Positions 1,133 through 37,094 of a stretch of DNA of 37,152 nt are shown here, in pieces. The stretch spans positions 1 through 37,152 of the forward strand of contig WJLY01000009.1 of NCBI GenBank assembly GCA_014728245.1. The letters run 5' to 3'. The notes beneath the pieces are model-generated. The model saw only the letters and a program-made list of their open reading frames with translations. It did no database searches and was not told where the DNA came from. Positions within the stretch are counted from its first letter, which is position 1. Every line of letters begins with the position of its first letter. The translations under genes were made by a program, and so were the position numbers. The stretch is from Candidatus Effluviviaceae Genus IV sp. Its GTDB lineage: Bacteria; Joyebacterota; Joyebacteria; Joyebacterales; Joyebacteraceae.

Positions 1133-1750
1133 TCAGCGGTAGAGCGACTTGATGATGCCCCAGTGGACCGACTCGACGGGCGAGCCCACGTTGGGCGCGC
1201 CCGGCGTAGGCGGCAGGCCGGTCTCCGGGGGATCGAGGGGGTTCAGCTGGTCGAAGACCGCCCAGTCGGGCCCACCGTCGGGCAGGCGCCCGTACGACCT
1301 GTCGTCAGCTACGTCGCTCGACCCGTACTCCTTCTGGTCGATGATGGTCTCGTGATCGGCGGACACGAGAGTGACTACGTCGCCGCCGTTATTGAGCGAC
1401 AGGCCCTGACGCGGGTAGCCGCTCTGGTCCTCCCAGTGATAGGCCTCGTTGCCGAAGACAACCAGCAGATGGCCCGGCTGAATCGTCCCCGTGAACTCGT
1501 ACCTCCAGCTCGAGTCGGACACTGCGTCGCGCAGCCTCCAGCCCGTTATATCGACTGGATCGAGCCCGGCGTTCACGATCTCTACCCACTCATCCTCCAT
1601 CGAGTGGTACTCGTCGTTCCCGTCACTGGGCGACCAGTCCCTGGCCGGGTCGGCCATGACCTCGTTGATGAACACCTGCGCGCCAGCGGGCGAGACGCAG
1701 AGCGCGATAAGCGCGACGAACGCGGACACCAGAGCGGACCGAGTGATCAC
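1133..1750 (-). CDS. secreted lamin-tail-domain (LTD) protein, about 205 aa
   Basis: Shortened from track ORF 1133..1927. A GTG at 1748-1750 is preceded by GGAGGTG and yields a signal peptide (M)ITRSALVSAFVALIALCVSPAGA. LTD hallmarks follow: VFINEVMADP, EWVEIVN, DITGWRL, LSLNNGGDVVTL. The upstream in-frame extension is Arg/Pro-rich and unlike coding sequence. Confidence 0.8.
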   Translation of the reverse strand: MITRSALVSAFVALIALCVSPAGAQVFINEVMADPARDWSPSDGNDEYHSMEDEWVEIVNAGLDPVDITGWRLRDAVSDSSWRYEFTGTIQPGHLLVVFGNEAYHWEDQSGYPRQGLSLNNGGDVVTLVSADHETIIDQKEYGSSDVADDRSYGRLPDGGPDWAVFDQLNPLDPPETGLPPTPGAPNVGSPVESVHWGIIKSLYR

Positions 1751-2015
1751 TTGGTCACCTCCGTCTTGTAGAGTCTTACCGATGATGGCGATTGCGCTGG
1801 CTGCGGGGTGCAATGGGGAGAAACGGGTCCGTTTCGGGGTGGCAGAGGGGTTCTCTCGGGTCCGCCCAAGTCCGGGCGATGGGTTTCGGAGCGCGCTTCC
1901 GTAGACCGTCACCCGGCCGTTGTCCATGAAGTTGACGGAGTCCCGGGGAAACAGACGGAGACAAGCACGAACCGTGCCGGCGTTCGGCTCGGAACGGCGG
2001 CGACCGCCCGGGGCA

Positions 2016-2112
2016 TGTCGGTGAGATCCTGGGGACGCGCCGGTGAGACTCTTTGATGTGTCGTTGAGATCCTCCGACGGGCAGGTGAGATTTTCGGACC
2101 TGCCGAGTGACA
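2016..2112. repeat. phased GGTGAGA boxes (21-22 bp period), also readable as a diverged 43-bp tandem duplication
   Basis: GGTGAGA at 2020-2026, 2042-2048 and 2084-2090; GTTGAGA at 2063-2069; degenerate AGTGACA at 2106-2112. The flanks tgtcggtgagatcct (2016-2030) and tgtcgttgagatcct (2059-2073) are 14/15 identical. Confidence 0.7.
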
Positions 2113-2170
2113 GCCGGAGCCCGGTCGCTGAACTCGCAGAGACGCGCCGGTCCGCAAGCCGACCCGGGGG

Positions 2171-2207
2171 ACAAAGAAGCGGCCCCCGCCAAGATGGCGG
2201 GGGCCGC
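2171..2207 (-). terminator. rho-independent terminator after the 955-aa LTD/OB/CTD gene
   Basis: gcggcccccgcc (2179-2190) pairs with ggcgggggccgc (2196-2207) across a short loop. On the minus strand TTCTTTGT follows. It lies 24 nt downstream of the stop at 2231. Confidence 0.7.
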
Positions 2208-2230: not shown

Positions 2231-5098
2231 CTACTTCAGGAGGACCATCTTCTTGCTCATCTCCTTCTCGCCGGCGTTCAGGCGGTAGAAGTAGACGCCG
2301 CTGGCGACCCGCTCGCCTGAGTTGGAACGACCGTTCCACTCCACGCTGTGCGGACCGGCGGCCATGTGACCGTCGACCAGCGTGGCAACTCTCCGTCCGG
2401 CCACGTCGTAGATGCTGAGTTCGACGTCGCCCGCCGAGGCCAGGCTGAAGGCGATCCTGGTCTTCGGGTTGAACGGGTTCGGCGAGTTCTGATGCAGGCC
2501 GAGCTTCGCGCTCACGCCGTCAGGCACGTCGACCGGGTTGACAGCGATGTCCTCGTTGCCCCTCGGCTCGATCCTGTAGTCCCCGTAGGCGTAGGCCACG
2601 AGTCCCTTGACGTAGACGTTGTCGCCCTGCACCGGCACGTAGTCGTAGTCGGCGTAGTCGCTGACGCGGCAGGTGTCGGACGCAGCGCCGTTTGTGATCA
2701 TCCACTCTCCGTACCCGACGTCCGCGTCCTCGACCGTGCAGTCCTCGGCGTGCACGTAGACGCTCTCGTACTGCTCACCCGAGACCGTGTTCTGGAGGCT
2801 CGCCGTCGCTATCGATGTCGGCGATATGGCCTCGCTCCGCGGCGGCGTGGCGAGCTGGGCGCAATCGGAGAAGTGGAGGGCCAACTGCGTCTGACCGAAG
2901 TACTCCTGAACCTCGCCGCAGGCCACGATGTAGTCGCCGCGCGAGAAGGTCTTCGAGCCCGACCTGTCGTAGACCAGGATGCCGTTCCAGGCTCCGCTGG
3001 CGTCGGCGATGTAGAACTGGTAGTCGCCGAAGACGCCCGGCTCCGCCGTCACGTAGCCCTCGACGTTGACCGCCAGGGACTCCATGACCGAAGCATCCAG
3101 GTCAGGTCCGACCGCCTGGACGTTCGCGATGTCCTCGATGCCGACGTAGAAGCTGTAGGTCCCGGCGGAGGGCTTCCGCGCGTCCATCGTGGCGTCCTGG
3201 CACTCGACGTAGTAGTAGATGCGGTCCCCGTCGCTGAACGGACCGATCGACGCCGCCCAGGTCTCTTCGACCGCCCTTGTCACCTCGGACATCGCGGTGC
3301 CTGTGAAGGGACCGCTCGGGCTGAGCGACCAGTTGAGAGTCGCGGACGAGATGTCGACGTCGTCCTCGAAGACCGCGCTCACGGTCACGTTTCCGCCCGG
3401 CGCCGGCGGCACCGGCGAGTAGCGCACGTCGCCTACCCTCGGCGGACCGATGATGTCCTCGTCGTATCTGGGCTCGAGCTTGTACTCGTCGTAGCTGTAC
3501 ATCACGATGCCACGGATCTCGTCTATCGCATCCAGCACTTCCGGCTCGTAGGAGTAGTATGCGTAGTCATCGACGTCCGCGTCTACGCCGGAAGAGTCCT
3601 GAATGTGCCACTGGCCGTAGTTGTCAGGGATGAGCGTAACGGTCGCGTCGGTAACGCTCACGAGCTGACTCTCGTACCGCTCGGCGTTGGGCTCGGTCGG
3701 CGCGATGTCGGCCGTGGTCACCGAGGCGTAGCCGTAGTTCGGGTTCCCGGTCGAGTGGACGACCAGCGCCTCCCAGAAGTGCTGCACGATCTCGGTCTGA
3801 CCGTAGTACTCACTGACGGTCCCGCAGATCGTTATGTCGTCGCCCTCGTTGATCTCCCCGTAGTAGCCGGGGGCGTAGCACTGGATACCCTCGTAGAAGC
3901 CGTTCCCCTCGTGGATCCAGAAGCTCGAGTCGGAGAACTCGCCCTTGGCGGCGGTCACGATACCGCGCACGTTCACGGCCTGCCCCACCAGAGGCGACTC
4001 GTCGACGGCCGTCTGGATGTCCGCGATCGTCGTATAGCCGACCGAGAAAGCGTAGGGATCGGCCTGCCCCTCGGCGGGGTAGTTGATGCCGGCGGCCTGG
4101 TCGTCGACCGCGCGCACGTAGTACTCGACCTGTGCGCCGTCGTACAGGTCCGCCATCGGGATGGCCCCCGTGTAGAGCGAATCGGGCGTTGTCGCGAAGA
4201 CTCGCTGCCAGCCCGCACCGTCGACGTTGTAGTAGACCATCACCGAGTCGACGCCGCTGTCGTCCGTCACGACCGCCGAGATCTCGACGTCCGACGTCTC
4301 GACCGGAGGAATCGGGGAATACTGCGGCGAGCGGACCCATGGAGGCGTGTTCGTGGTGTTCATCGCGGCCGGAGTCGGAACCTGCATCGCCCAGTCGACG
4401 TCGCTGTTGTCGGTATCGGTGCCGGCGGAGTCGCGCCCCAGCGTGTTGCCGAGGTACGGAATCCCGGCGAACGCGTTGTCGTCGGCGCCGTCATCGCCCG
4501 TGCAGGGATCGGTCGTGCACTCGTCGGGGTTTACATACTCAACGAGGTCGACCAGCGTAATAAAGGTCGAGGACGTGTAGAGATAGACGACGTCCGCGTT
4601 GCTCGTGCCGCCGCACATTACGCCGTAGCCGTTGCCGCCGACCAGGCCTATCTCGTCACTGTAGTTGGTGGCCGGATCGTCGTTGACGATCGTCATGTTC
4701 GGAACCGCCGCATAGTCGTCGTCGTAGGCGAACGACGGGTCGAACAACTCGAAGTCGGGATCGAAGCCGAAGTTCTCGTAGAAGCCGTCGTCGCCGTCGT
4801 GCGCGTCCTTGGCGACCACGATGTAGCCGCCCGCGGGTATCTCCGTGCCGGCGGGGAAGGTCCAGACATCCTCGCCGCCGCAAAGCTCGTCGAACTCCGT
4901 GCCGGTGAGCGCCCATCCGGCGATGGGGATCGAGCTCGCCGTCGGGTTGTAGAGCTCTATGAACTCCGCCCCGTCGTAGTTGCCGGGCGGGTTCGCATAG
5001 ATCTCGTTTATGACCACGTTGTCCCCGGAAGGACTGGCCACCGCCGTCCCGAAAGCGACAATGAGGACGACCGCGGCGATGAACGGAATCCGGTTCAT
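2231..5098 (-). CDS. secreted modular protein (955 aa): signal peptide, LTD, two copies of an [Ig-like + paired OB-like barrel] module, FlgD-Ig/T9SS-type C-terminal domain
   Basis: ATG at 5096-5098 follows AAGGAGGGAG. Signal peptide is MNRIPFIAAVVLIVAFGTAVA. LTD motifs: VVINEIYANPPG, EFIELYNP, IAGWAL. The C-terminus LHQNSPNPFNPKTRIAFSL...LSIYDVAGRRVATL...WNGR...SGVYFYRL...KKMVLLK is a near-textbook Por_Secre_tail/FlgD_ig pattern. Confidence 0.9.
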   Translation of the reverse strand: MNRIPFIAAVVLIVAFGTAVASPSGDNVVINEIYANPPGNYDGAEFIELYNPTASSIPIAGWALTGTEFDELCGGEDVWTFPAGTEIPAGGYIVVAKDAHDGDDGFYENFGFDPDFELFDPSFAYDDDYAAVPNMTIVNDDPATNYSDEIGLVGGNGYGVMCGGTSNADVVYLYTSSTFITLVDLVEYVNPDECTTDPCTGDDGADDNAFAGIPYLGNTLGRDSAGTDTDNSDVDWAMQVPTPAAMNTTNTPPWVRSPQYSPIPPVETSDVEISAVVTDDSGVDSVMVYYNVDGAGWQRVFATTPDSLYTGAIPMADLYDGAQVEYYVRAVDDQAAGINYPAEGQADPYAFSVGYTTIADIQTAVDESPLVGQAVNVRGIVTAAKGEFSDSSFWIHEGNGFYEGIQCYAPGYYGEINEGDDITICGTVSEYYGQTEIVQHFWEALVVHSTGNPNYGYASVTTADIAPTEPNAERYESQLVSVTDATVTLIPDNYGQWHIQDSSGVDADVDDYAYYSYEPEVLDAIDEIRGIVMYSYDEYKLEPRYDEDIIGPPRVGDVRYSPVPPAPGGNVTVSAVFEDDVDISSATLNWSLSPSGPFTGTAMSEVTRAVEETWAASIGPFSDGDRIYYYVECQDATMDARKPSAGTYSFYVGIEDIANVQAVGPDLDASVMESLAVNVEGYVTAEPGVFGDYQFYIADASGAWNGILVYDRSGSKTFSRGDYIVACGEVQEYFGQTQLALHFSDCAQLATPPRSEAISPTSIATASLQNTVSGEQYESVYVHAEDCTVEDADVGYGEWMITNGAASDTCRVSDYADYDYVPVQGDNVYVKGLVAYAYGDYRIEPRGNEDIAVNPVDVPDGVSAKLGLHQNSPNPFNPKTRIAFSLASAGDVELSIYDVAGRRVATLVDGHMAAGPHSVEWNGRSNSGERVASGVYFYRLNAGEKEMSKKMVLLK

Positions 5099-5285: not shown

Positions 5286-5314
5286 ATTATATCATATTCA
5301 ATCTGACTTGTCCA
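5286..5314 (-). promoter_or_regulatory. near-consensus sigma70 promoter for the 955-aa gene
   Basis: Minus strand reads TGGACA (5309-5314), a 17-nt spacer, then TATAAT (5286-5291). It lies in the most AT-rich patch I noticed by eye (about 5268-5318). The implied leader to the ATG at 5098 is about 180 nt. Confidence 0.55.
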
Positions 5315-5476: not shown

Positions 5477-7231
5477 CTACTGATACGGGCCTGCGGATTC
5501 GTCTCCCGGCGGCTTCAGGGGCTCCATGCCCTCCATCGCTTCCTTGAGCTCCGGCGACTTCTCGGCGGTGTCGTCTCTGACCCACCGCCCGTCCAGAACG
5601 CCCTTCACGGGCGAATGGCGCTCAATGTAGTGGATCACCGCGTCGCGCATCGTCGTAGACGAGCGCATCTTCTTGTCTTCCGGCACATTCGGTAGCATGT
5701 AGAGTCCCGCGTTGCCAGACGCCAGGAAGTCGCTCGTCACGACACGGTAGGTCTTGTCAGGCTGCCACTGCTCGCCGCCCACGGTGAATTGCGTGATCCG
5801 GTCGTAATCGGGCCGCGTCTTGTTGTAGACGATCTCCCCACCCGACATGTAGACACCGTGATGGTCCGCGCTCACGCGGTACTCGATGACTTCTTTAAGG
5901 AGCCGCCCGTCCATCTCGAAGACCATGATGCTGTTGCCGAACGGCAGAACCTTGAAGACGTCGCGGGGAGTGATGGGCCCCGCGGGGATCTGGTCGCGGA
6001 TTCCGCCGAGGTTCGTGAAGGCGAAGTCGGCCGACATCTCTTCCCGCATCGCGTCGCACACGAGGTTGCCCATCCGCGTCTCGCCCTCGCCGCCTCGCGT
6101 CAGGTCGTTGGCCGCCTGGCCGATCACGCGGTCCATGCCGGCCTCGGCCTCATCGACCATGGCGTTCACCATCTCCGCCGTTTCGGGATCCGGCCACCAC
6201 TCGTCCTCGAAAAGGGTAATCAGGTCCCCTCTGTAGCTCGGAAGCTCGTACCCGGCGAGCGACTTCGTGTCGGGATCGATCAGGAGCATGATGTGGCCGA
6301 CGCCGGAGCCCCGTCCGTATGTCTGGAAGCACATCGTGTGGTTGGTGGGGTCTATCCACGGCTCGTCGTAGCCCACGTGGATGTGCCCGCCGAAGAAGGC
6401 GTCGATGCCGGAGACCTCGTGGGTGATCTTCATCACGTTCGGCCCCCACTTGCTCTCCTCCAGAGGTTCCCGTACCTCTTCGGCCTCTCGCTCCTCTTCC
6501 TCCTCGATCATCTTCCAGTATGCTTCCTCGCGTTCGTAGGGCAGCCCCATGTGGCCGGAGACGAACACGATGTCGACGCCCTTCTCTCGCAGCTCCCGGA
6601 CATACTTCCTGGCCGTCTCGATCTCCGGGAGGAACTCGATGGGCTCGACGTGCTTGGGAAAGGCCATCTTCGGCGTGTCGGTCGTCGTGAGTCCGATGAT
6701 CCCGACCTTGACGCCTCCGAACTCCTTGATGAGGTAGGGTTCCACGAGCTCAACGGGCTCCCCGCTTTCGGCCCACACCAGGTTGGCGGAGAGAACCGGC
6801 ATCTCCGACATCTCGATCAGGTGCCAGAGGTTCTCGGCGCCCTCGTCGAACTCGTGGTTGCCGACCGTCCACAGGTCGACACCGACGTGGTTGAAGAACT
6901 CGACGACCGTCTCGCCGTCCTTGTAGTTCCCCACCGGCGTACCCTGGAAGATGTCGCCCTGGTCCATCACCAGAACGTAGTGGTTGTCGCTCTCTGCCGC
7001 CTCGTCGCGCACCCTCTCTATGTAGGTAGCCGCCGAAGCGCCCCCGCCCAGCGGCGGAGGGAACTCCCTATTCATGAAGGTCGCGCCGCTCGGGTCGATG
7101 CCGCCGTGGATGTCGTTGGTGAAGATCACGGACAGCCGAATGAGATCGCCGTCCGCCTCGGCCGCATGCGACCCGCCGGCCGCCACGAGAAGCGCCGCGG
7201 CGACCGCCAGTATCAGAATTCTGAGTCTCAT
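5477..7231 (-). CDS. secreted 5'-nucleotidase / 2',3'-cyclic phosphodiesterase family (UshA-like; calcineurin-like phosphoesterase + 5'-nucleotidase C-terminal domain)
   Basis: Metallophosphoesterase motifs: TNDIHGG, DQGDIFQG, GNHEFDEG, SGHMG, GGHIHVG. C-terminal substrate-domain motifs: FTNLGGIR, FKVLPFGNS. Preferred start is ATG 7229-7231 after GGGGGAAGAG, giving the signal peptide MRLRILILAVAAALLVAAGGSHA. The track start at 7252 is the alternative. Confidence 0.9.
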   Translation of the reverse strand: MRLRILILAVAAALLVAAGGSHAAEADGDLIRLSVIFTNDIHGGIDPSGATFMNREFPPPLGGGASAATYIERVRDEAAESDNHYVLVMDQGDIFQGTPVGNYKDGETVVEFFNHVGVDLWTVGNHEFDEGAENLWHLIEMSEMPVLSANLVWAESGEPVELVEPYLIKEFGGVKVGIIGLTTTDTPKMAFPKHVEPIEFLPEIETARKYVRELREKGVDIVFVSGHMGLPYEREEAYWKMIEEEEEREAEEVREPLEESKWGPNVMKITHEVSGIDAFFGGHIHVGYDEPWIDPTNHTMCFQTYGRGSGVGHIMLLIDPDTKSLAGYELPSYRGDLITLFEDEWWPDPETAEMVNAMVDEAEAGMDRVIGQAANDLTRGGEGETRMGNLVCDAMREEMSADFAFTNLGGIRDQIPAGPITPRDVFKVLPFGNSIMVFEMDGRLLKEVIEYRVSADHHGVYMSGGEIVYNKTRPDYDRITQFTVGGEQWQPDKTYRVVTSDFLASGNAGLYMLPNVPEDKKMRSSTTMRDAVIHYIERHSPVKGVLDGRWVRDDTAEKSPELKEAMEGMEPLKPPGDESAGPYQ

Positions 7232-17802: not shown

Positions 17803-17893
17803 CTCTTCATGCCCGACCTTGCCGGGTTGGCGTCTAGCTTTTCATGCCCGACCTTGCCGGGTTGACGTCTAGCTCTTCATGCCCGACGTTGCC
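17803..17893. repeat. 35-bp tandem repeat, about 2.6 units, copying the 3' end and stop codon of the MalG-like gene
   Basis: Unit 1 (17803-17837): ctcttcatgcccgaccttgccgggttggcgtctag. Unit 2 (17838-17872): cttttcatgcccgaccttgccgggttgacgtctag. Partial unit 3 (17873-17893): ctcttcatgcccgacgttgcc, which encodes the real C-terminus ...ATSGMKS. Confidence 0.9.
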
Positions 17894-20013: not shown

Positions 20014-20101
20014 TCGTTGGCTCCCGTTACCGCCGCAGTTCCCGTCGTCCGGAGCGCGGCGGGAACCCCGCTCGCCAGGACGGCGGGCTGCTCCTCGCTC
20101 T

Positions 20102-21376: not shown

Positions 21377-21453
21377 TCGGCACTCCTGTTTCTGTTGTCC
21401 CTGGTGCTGCGAAAGCCCGCGGCGGCGTCCCGCGGGCCCGCGTGGGTAGGAAG

Positions 21454-26948: not shown

Positions 26949-27028
26949 GAGGCAGGCGCCCCTTCCGTCCTTGCTCTTCATGCGCCGTTGTGCCCCGGCC
27001 GGGGCGACGGACGTGTGGCGGGACGTGG

Positions 27029-28039
<1,011 letters not shown>

Positions 28040-28077
28040 GACACAAGCTCCATTCGATACTGGGAACATCCCGCGGC

Positions 28078-29311: not shown

Positions 29312-31021
29312 TCAGACGAACAGGTCGGTCAGTTCGAAAGCCTCGACGTCCACGAGCCCCAGGTCTGTCACCTTGAGCTTGGGGATCACCGGAAGCGCCA
29401 TGAACGACATGGCCATGAACGGATCGTCGAGCTTCGATCCGAGGCGTCTGGCCGCCTTCCTGACGTCGTCCAGCCCCTTGACGACGTCCTTGAGCGATCC
29501 TTTGGACATGAGGCCGGCGATCGGCAACGACAGCCCCGCCACCAGCTTACCGTCACGGACGACCGAGAGGCCGCCCTTCATCTTCGATATTTCCACGACC
29601 GCCGCCATCATGTCCTCGCTGCTGGTCCCGACGACGACGATGTTGTGAGAGTCGTGAGCGACCGAGCTTGCGATCGCGCCCTTCTTGAGGCCGAACCCGC
29701 GCACGATGCCGCGGCCTATGCGGTCGCTCGCCTGATGGCGCTCCACGACCGCTATCTTCAGAAGGTCGCGCTCGGTATCGGCCACGACCTTTCCGTCCTC
29801 GATCTTGACGTTCTCAACCGACGACCCGGTGATGATCTGGTCGGGCACGAGGTCGATGACCTTCGCCTTCTTCCCGCGCGCCTCTATGTCGAAGTCCTCC
29901 GGAGTCAGCCACTTGATGTTGATCGAGCTCCTGAGCGTGACCTCCGGCGTCCGAGGCCGGGACGAGACCATCACGCCGTCCTGGGCGACGACCTTCCCGC
30001 TCTTGAAAACCGTCCGCACCTTGAAGCGCTTGAGACTGTCGACCACGACCATGTCGGCGCGGTACCCGGGGGCTATGGCCCCGAGGTCGGTCAGCCCGAA
30101 GTACTGGGCGGTGTTGATCGTCGCGAGCCTGATAGCCGCCACGGGGTCGAGCCCCTCCTTTATCGCGATCTTGATCATGTGGTCTATGTGGCCCTTGTCC
30201 AGAAGATCTTTCGGGTGCCGGTCGTCCGTGACGAAGAAGCAGCGCGGGAGGTTGTCCCGCGTGATCGCCGGCAGGAGGTCCCGGAGGTTCTTCGTGACCG
30301 AGCCCTCACGGATCATGATGTACATTCCGAGCCTGAGTTTCTCGAGGACCTCTTCCACGGACGTGCTCTCGTGGTCGGACGTGACGCCGGCGGCTATGTA
30401 GGCGTTCAGGTCCTTCCCCGAGAGACCCGGAGCGTGCCCGTCTATGCGCTTGTTCGACGTCATCGAGATCTTGTCCAGGAGCCCCTCGTCCTCCTGCAGT
30501 ATGCCCGGGTAGTTCATCATCTCGCCCAACCCGAGCACCCACTTCTCCCTCAGGAGAGGATAGAGATCGAAGCCCCTCAGCCTCGCGCCGCTCGTCTCGA
30601 ACTCGGTTGCCGGGACGCAGGAGGAGAGCATGACGAAGATGTTGACGGGGCTGTACTTCGCCGTGTTCAGGATGTAGTGGATTCCCTCCAGTCCGTGCAC
30701 GTTGGCTATCTCGTGCGGATCGCAGATGACGGATGTCGTGCCCCTCGGCACGACCGACCGCGCGAACTCCTGCACCGTGACCATCGTGCTCTCAACGTGC
30801 ATGTGTCCGTCGATGAGTCCCGGCAGCACGTATCCGCCCTCGAGATCGATCTCCTTTCTTCCCTCGTAATCGCCGATCCCGATGATCCGACCGCCCCATA
30901 TGGCGATATTGCTCCTGTAGACCTCCGCCGAGAACACGTTCACGATCCTCGCGTTTCTGAGCACAAGATCGCACGGAACGAGTCCACGCGCTACTCGGAT
31001 GATCTTCGCGAGTTCCTTCAT
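29312..31021 (-). CDS. ade: adenine deaminase (amidohydrolase superfamily)
   Basis: MKELAKIIRVARG...DLVLRNARIVNVF...LPGLIDGHMHVEST...VICDPHEIANV is typical of Ade. The size (569 aa) fits. The ATG overlaps the carbamate kinase stop (ATGA at 31018-31021). Confidence 0.9.
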   Translation of the reverse strand: MKELAKIIRVARGLVPCDLVLRNARIVNVFSAEVYRSNIAIWGGRIIGIGDYEGRKEIDLEGGYVLPGLIDGHMHVESTMVTVQEFARSVVPRGTTSVICDPHEIANVHGLEGIHYILNTAKYSPVNIFVMLSSCVPATEFETSGARLRGFDLYPLLREKWVLGLGEMMNYPGILQEDEGLLDKISMTSNKRIDGHAPGLSGKDLNAYIAAGVTSDHESTSVEEVLEKLRLGMYIMIREGSVTKNLRDLLPAITRDNLPRCFFVTDDRHPKDLLDKGHIDHMIKIAIKEGLDPVAAIRLATINTAQYFGLTDLGAIAPGYRADMVVVDSLKRFKVRTVFKSGKVVAQDGVMVSSRPRTPEVTLRSSINIKWLTPEDFDIEARGKKAKVIDLVPDQIITGSSVENVKIEDGKVVADTERDLLKIAVVERHQASDRIGRGIVRGFGLKKGAIASSVAHDSHNIVVVGTSSEDMMAAVVEISKMKGGLSVVRDGKLVAGLSLPIAGLMSKGSLKDVVKGLDDVRKAARRLGSKLDDPFMAMSFMALPVIPKLKVTDLGLVDVEAFELTDLFV

Positions 31022-31965
31022 TCCCGCTCCCTGATTATTCTCGTCCCCGTCTCGCCGTCGAGCGCCCTGCCCAGCGACCCCGGGTTCGTGATTATCACCG
31101 TTCCGCCCCCGTTCCGGATGAAGTCGATGCCGGCGAGCACCTTAGGGCCCATGCTTCCGGGCGGGAAGTGACCCTCGCGATGGTAGCGCTCCGCCTCCTC
31201 GACGGTCATCTCGTCGATCGCGGTCTCCCTGTCCGTGCCGTAGTGAAGCGCCACCTGCGGCACGTCGGTGGAGATGACGAACAGCCCCGCGCCGATCTGG
31301 TTGGCCAGAAGCCTCGAGGCGTGGTCCTTGTCTATGACCGCCTCAACGCCTCTGAGTCCCCCGTCCGATTCCACGACGGGAATCCCTCCTCCGCCGACTC
31401 CGATGACAACGCAGCCGGCGGACAACAGCGCCCTGATCGCTCCGACCTCAACGATTCTCACGGGCATCGGAGAGGGAACGACCCTCCGCCATCCTCTACT
31501 CGCGTCCTCCATCACCGCCCACCCCTGCTCGTCTCGCCTGCGCTTCACGTCCTCCTCGGAGTAGAAGGGCCCGATCGGCTTCGACGGCTCGTCGAACGCG
31601 GGATCGTTCGGATCTACGACGACCTGGGTCAGGACGGTGACAACGTCTTTCTCGATCGCCCGCCGCCTGAGCTCGGTCCCCAGGACCTGCTGCAGCATGT
31701 ACCCGATGCCACCCTGCGAATCGGCGCCGCAGGTGTCGAGCGGCAGCGGCGGCAGCACCGACGACGCCATCTCGGCCCTGAGGAGTATGTTCCCCACCTG
31801 TGGCCCGTTGCCGTGCGTCAGGACGACCTCGTGACCCCTCGCGATCATGTCGGCGATTACCGCGCTCGTCGCGCGCGTGTTCTCGAACTGCTCCGGGATA
31901 GTGCCCCGCTGTCCCGGTCTGGTGAGAGAATTGCCGCCTATGGCGACAACGGCAAGCTTGTCCAT
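31018..31965 (-). CDS. arcC: carbamate kinase
   Basis: ATG 31963-31965 follows GAGGTG. Carbamate-kinase hallmarks: MDKLAVVAIGGNSL and VLTHGNGPQVGN, later GGGGIPV. The track's N-terminal extension (to 32046) is Arg/Gly-rich junk. Confidence 0.9.
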   Translation of the reverse strand: MDKLAVVAIGGNSLTRPGQRGTIPEQFENTRATSAVIADMIARGHEVVLTHGNGPQVGNILLRAEMASSVLPPLPLDTCGADSQGGIGYMLQQVLGTELRRRAIEKDVVTVLTQVVVDPNDPAFDEPSKPIGPFYSEEDVKRRRDEQGWAVMEDASRGWRRVVPSPMPVRIVEVGAIRALLSAGCVVIGVGGGGIPVVESDGGLRGVEAVIDKDHASRLLANQIGAGLFVISTDVPQVALHYGTDRETAIDEMTVEEAERYHREGHFPPGSMGPKVLAGIDFIRNGGGTVIITNPGSLGRALDGETGTRIIRERE

Positions 31966-32071
31966 CGAACACCTCTTCAAGTTGCTTTCCCTGGCGGGGC
32001 CGCCGGCGCGGCCGCCGCGCTTTGGATTTCCGCCCGGCGTCCGCATCCGACGGACGTCCCCCGGCCCGTCT

Positions 32072-33079
32072 TTACCCGGCCATCGTCAGGGCCATGATCG
32101 CCTTCTGTACGTGCAGGCGGTTCTCGGCTATGTCGTAGAGAAGCGAGCGCTCACTGTCGCACACGTCGTCATCGACCTCGTTTCCCCTGTCGACCGGCAT
32201 CGGGTGGACGAAGACGGCGTCGTTCGTACGGCTCATCCTCTCCATGGTCGTCCGCCAGTCGCGGTTCTCCGCCGCCAGCTTCTGATCGCCCTCCCTGCCG
32301 ATGCGATAGCGGTCAGGGTGCATCCAGTGACGCGAGTAGACGACGTCGACGCCGTCGTAGGCCTCTTCCTGTTCGTGGGTGATCTCGAAATCCACCCCGG
32401 CCGCGTCGCAGTTGGCCTTCGTTCGGCCGATCACGTCGGGGTCGAGGTCGTACCCCTCCGGAAAGGCCAGCCGGACGTTCATCCCCAGACGGGAGTTCAC
32501 GAGCAAACTCTCCTGCACCGAACTCCAGGACCTGACCATCGGAGAGTAGCCCCAGATCTGGAGGAGCGTCTTTCCCCGCGTATCGCCCAGCCGTTCCCTC
32601 ATGCCCAGCACGTCCGCCAGCCCCTGGCAGGGATGGAACTTGTCGTGCGCCATGCTCACGACCGGCACGTCAGCCAGCTCCGCGAACTCCCTGAGAAACG
32701 CGTCGCCGTCGCCGTACGCTTCCACGGAATCCTCCAGTATCCGGATACCTATCCCGCAGGCGTACCTGCTCATCACCTTCGCGGTGTCCCGAAGGACCTC
32801 CCCGGAGCTGGTCTTCGTCTTGATCCGGAGCTTCGAGGGCTCGAGGAACTGAGCGTGGCCGCCCAGCTCGCTCGCCGCCGCCTCGAACGACTGGCGCGTG
32901 CGAAGCGAGGAGTTGTAGAACATCATCATGAAGGTCCTGTGCCGCAGGATCTCTGCGTCCTCGTCCGAGTATCTCCGGGCCTTCATCCGGGCGGCGAGAT
33001 CCAGGACCGCCTCCAGCTCGTCCACGGCCCAGTCCTGCGTGCAGACGAGGTCGCGGCCTCTGAGTTCAGTAACGTCCAT
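32072..33079 (-). CDS. carbamoyltransferase, divergent member of the knotted AOTCase/SOTCase/YgeW-like group (substrate unknown)
   Basis: ATG 33077-33079 follows GGAGAAG, 14 nt after the upstream stop. Motifs: FYNSSLRTR (carbamoyl-phosphate site), FHPCQ, and an unusual FVHPMPVDRGNEV (32195-32206 encodes HPMP) where ornithine-type enzymes have HCLP. The track extension to 33364 overlaps the upstream gene and is rejected. Confidence 0.85.
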   Translation of the reverse strand: MDVTELRGRDLVCTQDWAVDELEAVLDLAARMKARRYSDEDAEILRHRTFMMMFYNSSLRTRQSFEAAASELGGHAQFLEPSKLRIKTKTSSGEVLRDTAKVMSRYACGIGIRILEDSVEAYGDGDAFLREFAELADVPVVSMAHDKFHPCQGLADVLGMRERLGDTRGKTLLQIWGYSPMVRSWSSVQESLLVNSRLGMNVRLAFPEGYDLDPDVIGRTKANCDAAGVDFEITHEQEEAYDGVDVVYSRHWMHPDRYRIGREGDQKLAAENRDWRTTMERMSRTNDAVFVHPMPVDRGNEVDDDVCDSERSLLYDIAENRLHVQKAIMALTMAG

Positions 33080-33093
33080 GGTCTTCTCCGTTG

Positions 33094-34140
33094 TCAGTCC
33101 ATCAAGAGCGACATGATCGCCTTCTGCGCGTGCAGCCGGTTCTCGGCCTGGTCGAACACTATCGAACGGGGGCCGTCGATCACGTCGTCGGTCACCTCGT
33201 AGCCGCGGTCGCACGGCAGGCAGTGCATGTACTTCACGTTGTCCGCGCCCAGCTTCATCTTCTCCTCGTCGCACATCCAGTGCTTGTTGGCGGCGAAGAG
33301 CTCCTCCGTCTTCTCCAGCATCGGCTCGTCCGCGATCGGCGGAATGAAGTGCTTGGAGGTCCACGCCTTCGGATAGACCACGTGGGCCCCGTCGAACGCT
33401 TCATCCATGTCGTTCGTTATCTCGAACGACCCGCCCGACTCCTTCGCCCGCTTCTCCGTCGCCTTGAGGATCCTGTCCTCGAGCTCGAGCCCCTCGGGGT
33501 GAGCCAGGACGACGTCGCAGCCGACCGTAGCCGCCGCGATGATAGCGCTGTGCGGCACCGAGAGCGGCTTGTGGACCGAAGGGCTGTATGCCCAGCTCAT
33601 CACGAACTTGACGCCGTTGAATCGCCCGAAGTGCTCCCTCACCGTCATGATGTCGGCCATGCCCTGGCAGGGATGGTAGAGGTCGTCCTCCATGTTGATC
33701 ACCGGAACGTGCTCGGCCCAGTCAGCGAACTCCCGGACTATCCTGTTGGCCTTGCCGTTCTGCCAGCCCACGGGATCGCCGTACATCCTGATGGCTATCC
33801 CGTGCCCCATCCTGTCCAGCACCCGCGCCACATCCGAGATGCGTTCGGTCGAGTACGCCACCTCCTCGCCCTCCAGCGCGGGCATGTAGATCTTGTCGGG
33901 ATCCAGGAAGTGCGCGTGGCCGCCGAGCTGCGTCATCCCCGCCTCGAAGCTGTTCCGCGTGCGCAACGACTGGTTGTAGAAGAGCATGAAGAGCGTTCTG
34001 TCCTCCAGGTACTTGTGCGGCTGGCCGCGCTTGAACTTGCGCTTGAGCTCGTCAGCCAGATCGAGCATCGCCTCGACCTCGTTCTTCTTGAAGTCGAGTA
34101 TCGAGATGAAATCTCTGCCCCTGAACTTAGAATTGAACAT
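33094..34140 (-). CDS. carbamoyltransferase, YgeW/AOTCase-like knotted type (substrate unknown)
   Basis: Motifs: FYNQSLRTR, YHPCQ, MHCLPCDRGYEVTDDV. The stretch MSWAYSPSVHKPLSVP...VLAHPEG...ESGGSFEIT resembles my recollection of E. coli YgeW. ATG 34138-34140 follows GGGAGGA. Confidence 0.85.
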   Translation of the reverse strand: MFNSKFRGRDFISILDFKKNEVEAMLDLADELKRKFKRGQPHKYLEDRTLFMLFYNQSLRTRNSFEAGMTQLGGHAHFLDPDKIYMPALEGEEVAYSTERISDVARVLDRMGHGIAIRMYGDPVGWQNGKANRIVREFADWAEHVPVINMEDDLYHPCQGMADIMTVREHFGRFNGVKFVMSWAYSPSVHKPLSVPHSAIIAAATVGCDVVLAHPEGLELEDRILKATEKRAKESGGSFEITNDMDEAFDGAHVVYPKAWTSKHFIPPIADEPMLEKTEELFAANKHWMCDEEKMKLGADNVKYMHCLPCDRGYEVTDDVIDGPRSIVFDQAENRLHAQKAIMSLLMD

Positions 34141-34318: not shown

Positions 34319-35260
34319 TCAGCTTCTCCTGCACACCTCCCGGAGCGCCCTCTCAGTGAGGACCCTCGTGAGTCTTCTTCTGTATGAGGCCGTCGCTCTC
34401 ACGTCGTCTATGCAACATGTCGACCCGGCCGCCCTCTCCGCCACTTCGCCGAACAGGCCGTCGTCCCCGCGGGGCCCCGGCCACCTGTCCCCGAAGAGCG
34501 CCTCCGCCGCTTCCGCCCTGACGGGAGTCGGGGCGACCGAGCCGAGCGCCAGCCGGACACGGCCCTCTCCCGGCAGGTAGACGGCGGCCACCGACACGAT
34601 CGCGATGGCCAGCGCGTTCCTCTGGCCAGCCTTGAGGTAGACGCTCCTCGCGCCCTCGCCAGGGAGATCAAAGCTTACGCTCTCCAGGAGGTCGCAGCTC
34701 CCGAGCGCGCACGTGCCCGGGCCGGTGATGAACTCCCGCGCCGGGACGTCGCTCGCCGTGCCGTCGCCGAGCCGCACGTGAACCGTCGCGTCGAGGGCGA
34801 CGAGGGCGGCGACGGCGTCGGCCGCCGGAGAGGCGTTGACCAGATTGCCGCCGACGGTGCCGCGCGCTCGAATCTGCGGCGAACCTACGCGCCCGCAGGC
34901 CATACGCAGGACCCGCGCTCCGTCGCGCAACTCGTCGCCGTCCGAGAGCCTGCCGTGGGTCACAGTCGCTCCGACGAGCACCCGGTGTCCCTTTCTTTCG
35001 AAGACCCGCAGCGCCTCGACGCGTCCCAGGTCGACCAGCGTCGAGGGACGTTCAATGCCGGAGGCTATGCGGACAGCGAGGTCGGTACCCCCCGCTATCG
35101 GGCGGGCGTGTACCGCTCTCCCGGAGATGTCGCTCGTCGGGCGCTCACGTCCTGCGCCCTCTGCCGTGGCCGCGGCCGGGCCGCCCGCTCCCGCGGTCTC
35201 CGAGAGCGCCTCGATGCTCTCCTCTATCGAGCGCGGCCTCTTCCAGACCGGGTCATACAT
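34319..35260 (-). CDS. FAD-binding subunit of a xanthine dehydrogenase / CO dehydrogenase-family molybdenum hydroxylase
   Basis: FAD_binding_5-type motifs: RPIAGGTDLAVR and RGTVGGNLVNASPAAD, plus a C-terminal CO_deh_flav_C-like part. Preferred ATG is 35258-35260 (MYDPVWKRPRSIEE...) after GAGGGTAGAG. The track start at 35311 is in frame but lies in the duplicated copy. Confidence 0.85.
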   Translation of the reverse strand: MYDPVWKRPRSIEESIEALSETAGAGGPAAATAEGAGRERPTSDISGRAVHARPIAGGTDLAVRIASGIERPSTLVDLGRVEALRVFERKGHRVLVGATVTHGRLSDGDELRDGARVLRMACGRVGSPQIRARGTVGGNLVNASPAADAVAALVALDATVHVRLGDGTASDVPAREFITGPGTCALGSCDLLESVSFDLPGEGARSVYLKAGQRNALAIAIVSVAAVYLPGEGRVRLALGSVAPTPVRAEAAEALFGDRWPGPRGDDGLFGEVAERAAGSTCCIDDVRATASYRRRLTRVLTERALREVCRRS

Positions 35261-35335
35261 CGTCTCTACCCTCGCCGGGTATCGTGCGCGGTCTCTTCCA
35301 GACCGGGTCATACATCGTTTCTACCCTCGCCGGGT
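35226..35335. repeat. 55-bp head-to-tail tandem duplication (52/55 identical) covering the RBS, start codon and first 11 codons of the FAD-subunit gene
   Basis: The units are 35226-35280 and 35281-35335. On the minus strand each reads ACCCGGCGAGGGTAGA(A/G)ACGATGTATGACCCGGTCTGGAAGAG(A/G)CCGCGC(A/T)CGAT. Confidence 0.9.
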
Positions 35336-35421
35336 GACGAACACAACGTGCGCTTCCCGCATGGAGTGCGCATCAGGCTCCTCGGCGCCTGCGCACGAAC
35401 GGGGCTTCCAGGGGCGCCGAC

Positions 35422-36273
35422 TCACACATCGGAGTTCCGCACGGTCGTCGGACACCTCGGAAGGGCCCGCCCTCTCAGCAGGCCCTCCAGCACCGCCCCC
35501 GCCACCGCCCGCGCCTTGTCAGAGATCAACATGTGGTCTATCTCCGAGCCCCGCGGGTCCACGTCGCCCAGCTTGTCGCCGCCGCGGAGTCTTGTGCCGT
35601 CGGCGACGAGCCCACGCAGAAGCCCGGACACGCCGGCTCTTGCCTCTGCCTCCCCGACCGTTCCGACCAGCTCCCCGTCTCCGACGAGATCCCCGATCGC
35701 TCGGACCGATCTGAACTGCCCGACGCCCGGCGAGCGGATCACGCGTTCTCTTCCCACGCCCCGCACCTCCGCCGGAACGCCGGTGTCGGGCGCGGCGCTT
35801 CCCTCGTCGATCAAGCGTCCCAGCGAGTGCCCCCGCATTGTCTCCACCACGTAGTCGACGTCCTCGCCGGCGCGGAACCCCGGACCGAGGCCTATAGTGA
35901 CCGGCGCGTCGCCTCTGACGGTGCCGAGGTTGCGCTTGGCCATCCTGGCATCGACGACCGCCCCGGGACGCAGAGCCTCGATCGAAGCGCCCTCCGGGTC
36001 GATCACGAGAGGGACCCAATCCGGACGGCCGGGGCCCGAGACCGCGGCAGCGGCCTCCGCGACGGTCGCCTTCCTGGTCTCCACTCCCTCGACAGAGGCC
36101 GCGCCGTCGAAGGCGGCCTGCGCGAACGAGACCGTCCGCCGGACGACGCGCGGATCCTCCCTTTCCAGGACGACGACCGCGTATCCCGCACGGAACAGCC
36201 GGTGCGCCACCCCGGTGCCGAGATCCCCTCCGCCTCTCACGATTACCAGACCCTCGGTCGCCATCCGCGTCAC
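35422..36273 (-). CDS. yqeB: YqeB-family protein (accessory factor linked to selenium-dependent molybdenum hydroxylases)
   Basis: LVIVRGGGDLGTGVAHRLFRAGYAVVVLEREDPRVVRRTVSFAQAAFDG...VEGV, PVTIGLGPGF and ISDKARAVAGAVLEGL closely parallel what I recall of the C-terminal half of E. coli YqeB. The GTG start overlaps the xdhC stop (GTGA at 36270-36273); an alternative ATG lies at 36264. Confidence 0.7.
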   Translation of the reverse strand: MTRMATEGLVIVRGGGDLGTGVAHRLFRAGYAVVVLEREDPRVVRRTVSFAQAAFDGAASVEGVETRKATVAEAAAAVSGPGRPDWVPLVIDPEGASIEALRPGAVVDARMAKRNLGTVRGDAPVTIGLGPGFRAGEDVDYVVETMRGHSLGRLIDEGSAAPDTGVPAEVRGVGRERVIRSPGVGQFRSVRAIGDLVGDGELVGTVGEAEARAGVSGLLRGLVADGTRLRGGDKLGDVDPRGSEIDHMLISDKARAVAGAVLEGLLRGRALPRCPTTVRNSDV

Positions 36274-37094
36274 CTGTTCGAGCCCTTGTGCCCGAACTTG
36301 TCCCTGAGCATCACGGTATCCGTGATGCCGTGCCTGACCGCTATGATCTCCGCGACCACGCTGACCGCGATCTCGTCCGGCGTCTCCGCACCGATGTCGA
36401 TCCCTATCGGCGCGTGGAGCGATCGCAACGATTCCTCGGTGACGCCCTCCTCCCGTAACGCGTCGAGAGTCAGTGTCACTTTCTTCTCGCTCCCGATCAT
36501 GCCCAGGTATCGCGGCCGATGATCGGAGAGCGCCCTAACCCATTCGCGATCGAACCTGTGCCCGCGGGTCACGACGACCACGAAGGTCGAGTCGTCGAGC
36601 TCGATCTCGTCCTCCAGAAGCTCGACGCCGCCAACGAGTCTGCGCTCCGCGTCGGGGAAGCGCTCGTTCGTCACCATGTCGGCCCGGTCGTCGACCACGA
36701 CGACCCGGAAGCCGGCCCTTGCGGCCGCCGCGGCGACGGCGCGACCGACGTGTCCGCCTCCGACCACGAGTACCCGGGGGCCGGCCGCGACCGGCTCGAG
36801 GAAGACGTCCATCTTCCCCCCGCAAGCGGCTTCCGTATCGTCGTCGAGGTCGAACGACAGAAGCTCCGTCTGGCTCCCCCCGGCCATCGCTCTGGCTCGC
36901 TCGATGACGGAGCTCTCCACCGCTCCACCTCCGACCGAGCCCAGAGTCCTCCCGTCTTCGTAGACGATCATCTTCGCACCCGCGCCGCGAGGCGTCGACC
37001 CGCCTGCCGAGACGACCGTCGCTATCGTGCCCGGAACGCCGTCGCGGTGCATCCTGGCGATCTCGTCGAACAGGTCCCTCAACCTGAGAGCCAT
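36270..37094 (-). CDS. xdhC: XdhC/CoxI-family molybdenum-hydroxylase maturation protein
   Basis: XdhC N-domain: GTIATVVSAGGSTPRGAGAKMIV...GSVGGG. Rossmann part: VLVVGGGHVGRAVAAAAARAGFRVVVVDDR. C-terminal motif: LHAPIGIDIGAETPDEIAVSVVAEI. Confidence 0.85.
   Translation of the reverse strand: MALRLRDLFDEIARMHRDGVPGTIATVVSAGGSTPRGAGAKMIVYEDGRTLGSVGGGAVESSVIERARAMAGGSQTELLSFDLDDDTEAACGGKMDVFLEPVAAGPRVLVVGGGHVGRAVAAAAARAGFRVVVVDDRADMVTNERFPDAERRLVGGVELLEDEIELDDSTFVVVVTRGHRFDREWVRALSDHRPRYLGMIGSEKKVTLTLDALREEGVTEESLRSLHAPIGIDIGAETPDEIAVSVVAEIIAVRHGITDTVMLRDKFGHKGSNR

Follow-up and report, generated by a model that had tools for sequence, protein, structure and literature searches.

What does a 36-kb series of co-directional genes do, in which DNA-binding domains, outer-membrane barrels, hydrolases, importers and purine-catabolic enzymes stand side by side? 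This question is raised by contig WJLY01000009.1 (assembly GCA_014728245.1) of Candidatus Effluviviaceae Genus IV sp., of which positions 1 to 37,152 have been analysed here; this whole stretch is referred to as the window, and all of its features given below lie on the minus strand. An initial annotation, made from the letters and their open reading frames (ORFs) alone, had read the array as a system for the use of extracellular DNA and RNA that feeds an ATP-yielding purine pathway. The first half of this proposal has gained comparative and structural support, as the surface block has been found to be a conserved module with parts that point to nucleic acid, while its coupling to purine fermentation is plausible and lineage-restricted. 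We propose, and give the proposal an even chance, that a conserved envelope module captures, takes up and degrades extracellular nucleic acid, and that in this Eisenbacteria lineage it lies directly downstream of a nucleoside ATP-binding cassette (ABC) importer and a purine-catabolic cluster. Resting on observation here are the domain content, the fold predictions, the conservation of gene order in the Fibrobacterota-Chlorobiota-Bacteroidota (FCB) superphylum, the motifs of a metallo-beta-lactamase (MBL) protein and the co-location with purine genes in two clades.

The module contains an 826-aa protein (g05, 8633..11113) that joins a signal peptide, two ComEA-type helix-hairpin-helix (HhH) modules and an outer-membrane beta-barrel of about 24 strands, and that is called the HhH-barrel in the following. 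Its relatives have been collected with a 34-sequence alignment by scanning one genome per GTDB species, which has returned at least 579 confirmed relatives in the GTDB species representatives. The best 80 of these at least 579 derive from metagenome-assembled genomes (MAGs) labelled Eisenbacteria, Zixibacteria, Gemmatimonadota, Fibrobacteraceae, Krumholzibacteriota and Latescibacterota and include one labelled Gemmatimonas sp. and one Fibrobacter sp., and homologs that carry source names are annotated Candidatus Eisenbacteria. An exhaustive hidden Markov model (HMM) search of 1.84 billion cluster representatives has yielded 188 HhH-barrel proteins at E<=1e-30, and since most of the full-length matches measure 750-950 aa and are aligned end to end, the HhH-plus-barrel architecture represents a coherent family. 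An exact look-up of the window protein has returned no record, and searches of the full-text literature have given nothing specific on an HhH-fused outer-membrane barrel or on the use of DNA by Eisenbacteria. The family is apparently undescribed and conserved across FCB phyla.

The gene order around the HhH-barrel has been counted by tblastn of 26 window proteins against 80 species-representative loci (+/-10 kb), where only loci with enough flank have entered each count. In all 71 evaluable loci, the gene directly upstream of the HhH-barrel encodes a PorV-like barrel; downstream, a FadL-like barrel occurs in 64 of 68 loci and a 5'-nucleotidase in 51 of 53. A paralog of the secreted proteins that combine OB modules, LTD domains and a C-terminal domain (CTD) lies upstream in 57 of 57 loci, counted from matches covering at least 30% of a paralog. 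Two further partners follow the identity of the HhH-barrel: the CUT1 transporter stands upstream in all 28 loci at 43% identity or more and in none of 18 below 43%, and the MBL gene stands upstream in 14 of 14 loci at 60% or more and in 4 of 13 at 43-50%. Below 43%, the MBL gene has been found between the FadL-like barrel and the 5'-nucleotidase in 7 of 21 loci, and this position inside the core in seven distant loci is strong evidence for its membership in the module. The conserved core order is CTD-bearing OB/LTD protein, PorV-like barrel, HhH-barrel, FadL-like barrel, (MBL) and 5'-nucleotidase, which is kept in nearly all 80 loci, and precomputed Pfam annotations of five independent contigs have given the same picture. 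Neighbourhood conservation, which the initial annotation had proposed to analyse, has been found for the HhH-barrel, for the OB/LTD paralogs, for the MBL protein and for the 5'-nucleotidase.

The HhH modules of the barrel protein are matched by PF12836 (HHH_3) with 46.3 bits against a cut-off of 27, and the full-length ComEA model TIGR01259 scores 29.7 bits, below its cut-off of 152. In the AlphaFold2 (AF2) model built on the 34-sequence alignment (pLDDT 82.7, pTM 0.81), the HhH modules occupy approximately residues 30-190, and about 24 long beta-strands between residues 203 and 825 form a barrel of ~620 residues. A Foldseek comparison with the PDB has returned generic large barrels only, namely Deinococcus SlpA, FimD/PapC ushers, MtrB and TonB-dependent receptors, with identities of at most 11%, and no solved homolog of the HhH-barrel. 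A specific kinship with ushers or TonB-dependent transporters has been rejected, as these generic matches have template modelling (TM) scores of 0.2-0.33. Because the number of strands is even, the N-terminal HhH domains are expected to be placed in the periplasm. The C-terminal residue, as read from the sequence, is W in the HhH-barrel and F in both the PorV-like and the FadL-like barrel, and such aromatic termini would be as expected for the signal recognized by the beta-barrel assembly machinery (BAM).

The companion barrels have been assigned with lower scores. The small PorV/PorQ/PorP-like outer-membrane barrel (g06, 11185..12066) aligns with the whole NF033709 PorV_fam model at 78.9 bits against a cut-off of 90, and thus stays below the family threshold, as does its additional match to PorP_SprF; a PDB sequence search with this protein has found no match. 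The FadL/Toluene_X-like barrel (g04, 7326..8564) narrowly exceeds the Toluene_X cut-off (30.1 versus 29.7 bits) and scores 29 bits with NF033709. Both proteins share the N-terminal motif R-x-x-A-M-G-G-A ... N-P-A-x-L and are otherwise barely alignable. The two barrels that flank the HhH-barrel may be distant paralogs.

Secreted proteins are encoded in the same array, three of which carry tandem-OB modules. The 955-aa protein g02 (2231..5098) is composed of LTD, immunoglobulin-like (Ig), OB module, Ig, OB module and a sorting domain of the type IX secretion system (T9SS), with matches to LTD, FlgD_ig and CHU_C. Its tail classifies as T9SS type A, with 31.5 bits for TIGR04183 (cut-off 23) and 44 for FlgD_ig (cut-off 27). 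The 1048-aa protein g07 (12122..15268; LTD, FlgD_ig) has the order OB module, beta-sandwich, LTD, Ig-like, OB module and C-terminal sorting domain, and its tail is borderline with a FlgD_ig score of 27.0. The 366-aa protein g08 (15299..16399) consists of a single tandem-OB module, modelled by AF2 with a pLDDT of 87, and a C-terminal T9SS-like domain that is below threshold yet homologous to the tail of g07. Accompanying these, g01 (1133..1750) encodes a small secreted LTD protein of 205 aa (Pfam LTD 65 bits), whose start at GTG 1750 is backed by a ribosome-binding site and by homologs of 204-206 aa. A blastp comparison of the segments has identified five copies of the ~205-aa OB module, of which g02 and g07 carry two each and g08 one. 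By the same comparison, an LTD is present in each of g01, g02 and g07 and a sorting tail in each of g02, g07 and g08, and g02 also has two Ig-like domains. A nuclease domain hidden in the large surface proteins has been considered and rejected: every segment is LTD, Ig-like, OB or CTD, so that no room is left for a catalytic domain. A PDB sequence search with the 972-aa surface protein has returned Ig and FlgD-like pieces only.

The OB module of g08 has been modelled as two consecutive small barrels. Foldseek has matched it to the anticodon-binding OB folds of AspRS and AsnRS, to Stn1/Ten1 and, over ~200 columns, to the tandem-OB HIN domains of p202, AIM2/IFI16 and MNDA, several of which have been solved with dsDNA (4jbm, 4lnq, 8i6k). 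In the underlying alignment of 31 full-length homologs and four window OB segments, the tRNA_anti-codon OB family has been matched in 28 of 35 members. As modelled, the module resembles a HIN-like tandem OB.

The candidate for the cleavage step is a 424-aa lipoprotein (20102..21376), in which an N-terminal beta-sandwich precedes a ComEC-type MBL domain (Lactamase_B). It covers model positions 439-633 of 663 in ComEC_Rec2 only, with 76 bits against a cut-off of 190, and the protein lacks a Competence channel domain and the N-terminal OB domain (DUF4131) that define the ComEC/Rec2 channel. Its best PDB sequence matches are the MBL domains of ComEC (9ic4, 30bt), and homologs from several phyla conserve the metal-binding motifs HxHxDH, GD and HH together with the lipoprotein-type signal. 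Nuclease activity has been reported for the ComEC MBL domain (PMC8579336, PMC12455585). A metagenome scan anchored on the MBL protein, with back-translated patterns that were too specific, has given one close contig of 3.4 kb and 79 unrelated MBL proteins. The mature lipoprotein is predicted to begin with C-S-D-S-E after the lipobox Cys. Such a start resembles the acidic export signal by which lipoproteins of Bacteroidota are directed to the cell surface, and if that signal applies here, the candidate nuclease would be surface-exposed and not periplasmic. In locus L167, a close relative of the window, an extra 656-aa protein (19456-21426), which does not occur in the window, is encoded between Bmp permease and MBL gene; it has a faint match to a purple-acid-phosphatase N-terminal domain and may be an additional phosphoesterase of the system.

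The near-universal neighbour of the core, the UshA-type 5'-nucleotidase (g03, 5477..7231), has a signal peptide and no sorting tail, and is probably periplasmic. It exceeds the Pfam cut-offs with 51 bits for Metallophos and 127 for 5_nucleotid_C, scores 201 bits with the UshA equivalog model (cut-off 600), and has 3ivd, 2z1a and UshA itself (1ush) as PDB relatives. The CUT1 transporter upstream comprises two ABC permeases (17869..19002 and 19039..20013, both BPD_transp_1) and a substrate-binding lipoprotein (16434..17726, SBP_bac_8/1) that belongs to the UgpB-like branch of phosphate-ester binders. The lipoprotein has UgpB as its top NCBIfam match (122 bits, below cut-off), and its best PDB matches are the 7c0t series, followed by UgpB of E. 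coli and M. tuberculosis (4aq4 and 4mfi). The 7c0x entries, and with them the 7c0t series, presumably belong to the Thermus dinucleotide (U3G)-binding protein (Chandravanshi et al., 2021). This Thermus protein clusters with UgpB in the phosphate-binding branch of CUT1 (PMC12718374). The relationship suggests that the CUT1 system could take up dinucleotides or other phosphodiesters rather than sugars.

On the other side of the MBL gene, the genes g13-g25 encode a nucleoside-type importer and a purine block. The importer consists of two BPD_transp_2 permeases (21541..22443 and 24250..25353), a tandem ABC ATPase (25350..26981, ABC_tran x2) and a Bmp/PnrA-family substrate-binding lipoprotein (27029..28081, Pfam Bmp 249 bits) related in the PDB to BmpD (6shu) and TmpC (2fqw), the latter of which we take to be the purine nucleoside receptor PnrA. 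By its composition it is a Bmp/PnrA nucleoside ABC importer with a predicted nucleoside ligand. Between the two permease genes, with 4-nt overlaps, lies a gene for the lipid II flippase MurJ (22547..24253, Pfam MurJ 264 bits), which is outside the proposed pathway and occupies the same slot in L167 (16826-18487), a locus with 69% HhH-barrel identity. Upstream of the importer follow a major facilitator superfamily transporter (28078..29280, MFS_1), whose NCBIfam likeness, to efflux-type transporters, is only weak, an adenine deaminase (29312..31021, Adenine_deam_C; TIGR01178 666 bits versus 472) and a carbamate kinase (31018..32046; TIGR00746 arcC 390 versus 358).

Two carbamoyltransferase genes come next. 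The second of the pair (32072..33079), an OTCace-type paralog of 335 aa from ATG 33079, has a homolog in L167 of the same length, and the first (33094..34140, OTCace_N + OTCace) resembles ornithine carbamoyltransferase (OTC) and N-acetylornithine carbamoyltransferase (AOTC), which are the best models for both proteins. The first passes NF003384 by a small step (288.6 versus 288) and scores 164-169 bits with YgeW models against cut-offs of 453-500; with TIGR03316 (YgeW), the two reach 164 and 134 bits, below the cut-off of 500. The block ends with the FAD-binding subunit of a molybdenum hydroxylase of the xanthine dehydrogenase (XDH)/CO-dehydrogenase family (34319..35311, FAD_binding_5 + CO_deh_flav_C; XdhB-like 155 bits versus 310), with YqeB, a marker for the maturation of selenium-dependent molybdenum hydroxylases (35422..36273; TIGR03309 310 versus 220, no Pfam match), and with an XdhC-family protein for insertion or maturation of the molybdenum cofactor (36270..37094, XdhC_CoxI + XdhC_C; NCBIfam scores below equivalog cut-offs). 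The window, which is cut just upstream of XdhC, contains no molybdopterin catalytic subunit, YqeC or SelD. As a speculation, phosphorolysis of both ureido groups of 2,3-diureidopropanoate by the two transferases could double the ATP yield.

Whether this block belongs to the core has been addressed in the relatives. None of g13-g25 occurs within 10 kb of the HhH-barrel in any of the 80 loci, and as 10 kb is too short to reach the Bmp/purine genes in close relatives, the search has been re-anchored on adenine deaminase. Genes for adenine deaminase, carbamate kinase and Bmp have then been found to share a contig with the HhH-barrel in at least 10 close relatives, as inferred from contigs of identical size, and some of these shared contigs are as short as 28.6 and 33.5 kb. 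On a contig of 297 kb, the adenine deaminase-anchored locus L167 (158460-180178) abuts the barrel-anchored locus L019 (136048-158525) and repeats the gene order of the window, including MurJ between the Bmp permeases. In a second clade, which has 45% identity in the HhH-barrel and 61% in adenine deaminase and includes a MAG labelled Eisenbacteria, the purine/deaminase/Bmp block is again located on the barrel contig: on one of 612 kb, L168 (21547-43259) is ~4.8 kb away from L050 (1-16771), which begins with the MBL-CUT1-surface block. A further contig of this clade (L169, 94 kb) has the same layout on the deaminase side, and the longest contig listed for the HhH-barrel homolog P0055 is of matching size.

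The second clade has also rearranged the block. Genes for a Tricorn protease, a DJ-1 protein, a Na/H exchanger and EIIA are inserted in the Bmp system, some of them on the opposite strand. The slot that holds two tandem transferases in the window (32072-34140) and in L167 (6875-8969) is occupied by an M20 peptidase and an MgsA-type AAA protein in L168 (6440-9032) and L169 (6458-9039). Compared with the window, these relatives have additional genes for YqeC and a 2Fe-2S subunit, both upstream, as well as for a MocA-like protein, a PALP enzyme and the M20 peptidase; the PALP enzyme is plausibly YgeX-like and the peptidase plausibly YgeY-like. In other lineages, different genes are found upstream of CUT1: rpoD in L004, a upp-like gene in L033, another CTD protein in L035, and a divergent EF-G-like gene in L039, L041, L043 and L044, which group with loci labelled Gemmatimonadota. 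The co-location of surface and purine blocks in relatives is real and has outlived substantial divergence, and it has been seen only in two clades that include Eisenbacteria-labelled MAGs; in every other lineage with a readable flank it is absent. As a side observation, genes for nucleoside or base salvage recur beside the core in other lineages, with a PNP_UDP_1 phosphorylase upstream of the core in L005 (1-523) and, just upstream of CUT1 in L033 (634-1293), a 220-aa ORF that reads, judged from its sequence, like a uracil phosphoribosyltransferase.

The layout of the array itself has been revised in several respects. Start codons have been refined from ribosome-binding sites, signal peptides and the lengths of homologs, which has set the HhH-barrel start at 11113 (826 aa, 8633-11113) instead of the long-ORF start at 11458, the MBL lipoprotein at 424 aa (20102-21376), the large LTD protein at 955 aa (2231-5098, ATG 5098) and the small one at 205 aa (1133-1750). 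The ORF series from 1133 to 37094 is unbroken, with a third-position GC of 0.76-0.91 throughout in a window of 65% GC, and the window is probably a complete contig, with the array cut at both of its ends. The co-directional run has been confirmed, and its count has changed from the 22 consecutive genes initially given to 25 complete ones, MurJ having gone unmentioned, plus a truncated gene of the Na/Ca exchanger family on the same strand (3-1133), after the small LTD gene. Among close loci, down to ~66% HhH-barrel identity, 10 of the 12 that are evaluable keep the exchanger in this position; nucleases of the ExeM type depend on Ca/Mg. GC skew is negative over the whole window, so that the coding strand is G-rich. 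An Rfam scan of the whole window at E<=1 has detected no riboswitch or other RNA family. Every domain class named by the initial annotation has been recovered by Pfam or NCBIfam, and its statement that no EEP, SNase or NUC nuclease domain is present has been borne out for all ORFs.

Most junctions are overlaps or gaps below 110 nt, in line with the tiny gaps and 4-nt overlaps first described, but four are long: ~378 nt between g03 and g02, ahead of the 955-aa LTD gene, ~480 nt between g02 and g01, after it, 178 nt between the FAD subunit and the first carbamoyltransferase, and up to 164 nt between Bmp permease and MBL. A sigma70-like consensus match, TGGACA-17-TATAAT with an extended -10 TG (5286..5314, 11 of 12 positions, a consensus match only), precedes the 955-aa gene, and an intrinsic-terminator-like hairpin of 13 bp, 12 of them GC, with a T-rich tail (2179..2207) follows 24 nt past its stop; this gene looks like a transcription unit of its own. 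A single 36-kb operon is unlikely given the hairpin, the promoter-like site and the long gaps, and the array probably comprises several transcription units. The description of the array as one unit has been an overstatement.

The combination had been thought not to be described as a unit, and this needs correction, as the ddbABCDEF loci of Bacteroidales and the corresponding Riemerella genes are the same kind of system (PMC12478041, PMC8459023). Among described systems, the one closest to the window module is the DNA-utilization locus ddbABCDEF of Bacteroides thetaiotaomicron (PNAS 2025). Its products include three nucleases, the transporter DdbC, which is of the TonB-dependent type, and DdbD, a DUF5689 protein, and the locus is needed for the depletion of DNA and the production of xanthine and uracil (PMC12478041). 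The authors have likened the DdbD model to the dsDNA-binding HIN domain of p202 (PDB 4JBM) and have related the locus to the Riemerella transformation genes RA0C_RS04915/04920 (PMC12478041), and in Riemerella anatipestifer a separate HhH protein, RA0C_RS02645, is also essential for transformation (PMC8459023). At the level of its logic the window module is like these loci of the FCB superphylum, in that a surface protein proposed or known to bind DNA is combined with an outer-membrane barrel and envelope hydrolases. The modelled OB module of the window matches 4jbm, the published analogue of DdbD, HhH domains are present here as an HhH protein is required in Riemerella, and the deaminated nucleobases that are the downstream products in B. 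thetaiotaomicron parallel the adenine deaminase of the window. In contrast to Ddb, the window ORFs are devoid of CarboxypepD_reg, Plug and TonB_dep_Rec domains, so that none qualifies as a DdbC-type transporter; the channel is a plug-less barrel of ~24 strands with HhH in the place of the plug, set apart from DdbC by its domain content. The putative DNA-binding modules are carried by LTD proteins with signal peptidase I-type signals and T9SS tails, whereas DdbD is a signal peptidase II-type lipoprotein. In place of DdbA/B/F-type nucleases, the window encodes a ComEC-type MBL protein and a 5'-nucleotidase; it also has two additional PorV/FadL-like barrels, and the host phyla lie outside Bacteroidota.

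Other known systems share single sections of the array. The LTD and OB front end resembles ExeM/NucH/Xds (LTD + YhcR-like OB + EEP) and YhcR of B. subtilis, and the ExeM_NucH model NF033681 covers only the OB part of g02 (positions 31-116 of 546, 62.5 bits versus 300). The YhcR-like OB region is essential for the nuclease activity of ExeM (PMC6085458). The window proteins differ in that the catalytic EEP (or SNase) domain is absent and T9SS-type tails are present, and they appear from their domain content to be binding modules only. The HhH-barrel has the HHH_3 DNA-binding repeats of ComEA, here fused to an outer-membrane barrel, and the MBL protein is kin to the C-terminal nuclease domains of ComEC (PMC8579336) but is a free-standing lipoprotein without channel or OB domain in a catabolic context. 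The arrangement of a sorting-domain cargo gene followed by a small PorV/PorP-family barrel gene is that of T9SS cargo with PorP/SprF or PorV/PorQ anchors; g06 stays below the family cut-offs, however, and the large HhH-barrel has no T9SS counterpart. On the purine side, YqeB, XdhC, the FAD subunit and a carbamate kinase beside carbamoyltransferases are reminiscent of the ygeW-yqeA-yqeB-yqeC/2,8-dioxopurine cluster of E. coli (bioRxiv 10.1101/2025.04.24.650524). The parallel to ygeW drawn by the initial annotation is not supported, since the transferases are OTC/AOTC-like and the window has no molybdenum catalytic subunit; SsnA, HyuA and YgfK have likewise not been seen, and adenine deaminase and the Bmp importer are attached directly in the window, unlike in the ygeW-type cluster. 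A secretome survey has listed multiple probable secreted nucleases in an Eisenbacteria MAG.

Taken as a pathway, the parts suggest the following course. Three secreted proteins with five HIN-like tandem-OB modules and LTDs would bind DNA or RNA at the surface, which they would reach by way of their T9SS-type C-terminal domains, and the PorV/PorP-like and FadL-like barrels may anchor them, in analogy to SprF, which holds SprB. The polymer or large fragments of it would pass the outer membrane through the ~24-strand barrel and would be held or ratcheted inward by the tandem ComEA-type HhH domains in the periplasm. The ComEC-type MBL lipoprotein would cleave them to oligo- and mononucleotides, from which the UshA-type 5'-nucleotidase would free nucleosides and phosphate. 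Dinucleotides and similar phosphodiester products may be taken up by the UgpB-branch CUT1 transporter, and nucleosides would be imported by the Bmp ABC system. In the cytoplasm, adenine deaminase would feed purines to a pathway with a selenium-dependent molybdenum hydroxylase, and carbamoyltransferase and carbamate kinase would yield ATP, a step modelled on YgeW and YqeA of the 2,8-dioxopurine pathway. A more far-reaching version, which we put forward as a tentative and rather doubtful idea, regards the HhH-barrel family as an outer-membrane DNA translocon of a new kind. It would be a plug-less channel of ~24 strands with a built-in ComEA-like periplasmic ratchet, supplied by T9SS-delivered tandem-OB 'fishing' proteins for which PorV-like barrels would serve as anchors, and would need neither type IV pili nor secretins nor TonB; by this device many FCB phyla, namely those of the six labels given above, would import polymeric DNA into the periplasm as food, and in Eisenbacteria it would be wired directly to an ATP-yielding purine fermentation.

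Several observations weigh against the proposed module and its coupling. The purine link is absent in other lineages with a readable flank, the carbamoyltransferases are not of the YgeW type, and a molybdopterin catalytic subunit has been found neither in the window nor within 10 kb upstream in relatives. With MurJ, a housekeeping cell-wall gene is oddly embedded in the genes of the nucleoside importer. CUT1 systems usually carry sugars, and the window contains no gene for a CUT1 ATPase. The MBL protein is a candidate nuclease only, in an array without a canonical nuclease, and it is missing beside the core in many lineages (e.g., L004-L006). The Foldseek matches to HIN domains have E-values of only ~1e-3 at a TM of ~0.4 on the target. 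Pfam DUF5689, the family of DdbD, aligns with g02 over its full length at a sub-threshold 17.3 bits (cut-off 28.6), and a Pfam scan at E<=0.05 has found it in 0 of 35 OB-module sequences; any homology to DdbD is weakly indicated, by this one match and the shared structural analogue. The hairpin, the promoter-like site and the gaps of 160-480 nt make several transcription units likely. Finally, replication may have contributed to the common direction: the GC skew is negative, and if the G-rich coding strand is the leading one, part of the co-directionality would come from co-orientation with replication.

Much of this would be accommodated if the nucleic-acid core is accepted and the adjacency of the Bmp/purine genes is taken as inherited synteny, with leading-strand co-orientation adding to the apparent unity and the blocks being separately regulated and devoid of a dedicated functional coupling. 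Such a history would account for a purine link confined to Eisenbacteria clades, for rpoD, EF-G-like, upp-like or CTD genes upstream of CUT1 in relatives at similar distance, and for the lack of g13-g25 within 10 kb in distant phyla; the embedded MurJ, the partly opposite-strand insertions of Tricorn protease, DJ-1, Na/H exchanger and EIIA in the Bmp system of the second clade, the terminator-like and promoter-like signals, the long gaps and the uniform GC skew fit it as well. We nevertheless consider this main alternative less likely, as the adjacency has outlived divergence to 45% (HhH-barrel) and 61% (adenine deaminase) despite insertions and the replacement of the carbamoyltransferases, the core products, nucleosides and bases, are exactly the substrates of the neighbours, and salvage genes stand beside the core elsewhere (a purine nucleoside phosphorylase in L005, the upp-like gene in L033). 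Two other explanations concern the core itself. The T9SS-type tails, the Ig-like domains and the PorV/PorQ/PorP-like barrel neighbours, together with LTDs without known function, a mostly sugar-transporting CUT1 family and the lack of a canonical nuclease, would also suit a T9SS cargo or attachment cluster for another polymer (polysaccharide or protein) or for adhesion to a biofilm matrix with extracellular DNA, in which CUT1 imports sugars and the nucleotidase is incidental. This appears improbable, given that HhH, nucleic-acid-type OB folds, ComEC-type MBL and 5'-nucleotidase are syntenic across phyla, that none of the 25 genes encodes a glycoside hydrolase, carbohydrate-binding module or peptidase domain, and that the CUT1 substrate-binding protein groups with binders of phosphate esters and not of oligosaccharides. 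Still less do we favour a machine for natural transformation that takes up DNA independently of type IV pili, as proposed for Riemerella, instead of feeding on it. ComEA-type HhH domains and a ComEC-type MBL protein would belong to such a machine, transformation in Riemerella anatipestifer requires each of three proteins, one with DUF5689, one an outer-membrane barrel and one with HhH, and the Ddb locus is evolutionarily related to that system; yet a ComEC channel domain, ComF, DprA and RecA are lacking in the window and in the inspected neighbourhoods, the near-universal partner is a 5'-nucleotidase, which destroys information content, and the neighbours in Eisenbacteria are catabolic.

The proposal of a nucleic-acid-utilizing envelope module bears on the ecology of the lineages that carry it. 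In sediments, soils and sludge, a major reserve of P, N and C consists of extracellular DNA, and its consumers and their machinery are little known in uncultured lineages. To our knowledge, outside type IV pilus/secretin systems the DdbCD/Riemerella transporter of Bacteroidota is the only outer-membrane route for DNA that has been described. If the proposal is true, the HhH-barrel would represent another family of channels for DNA that differs in structure from this transporter and keeps synteny with genes for DNA binding and nucleotide degradation in at least six FCB phyla, and would provide a genomic marker for the DNA-foraging potential of MAGs. As a candidate it is testable in cultivable relatives such as Fibrobacter and Gemmatimonas. 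The arrangement in Eisenbacteria, in turn, suggests a complete route from polymer to ATP within one chromosomal neighbourhood.

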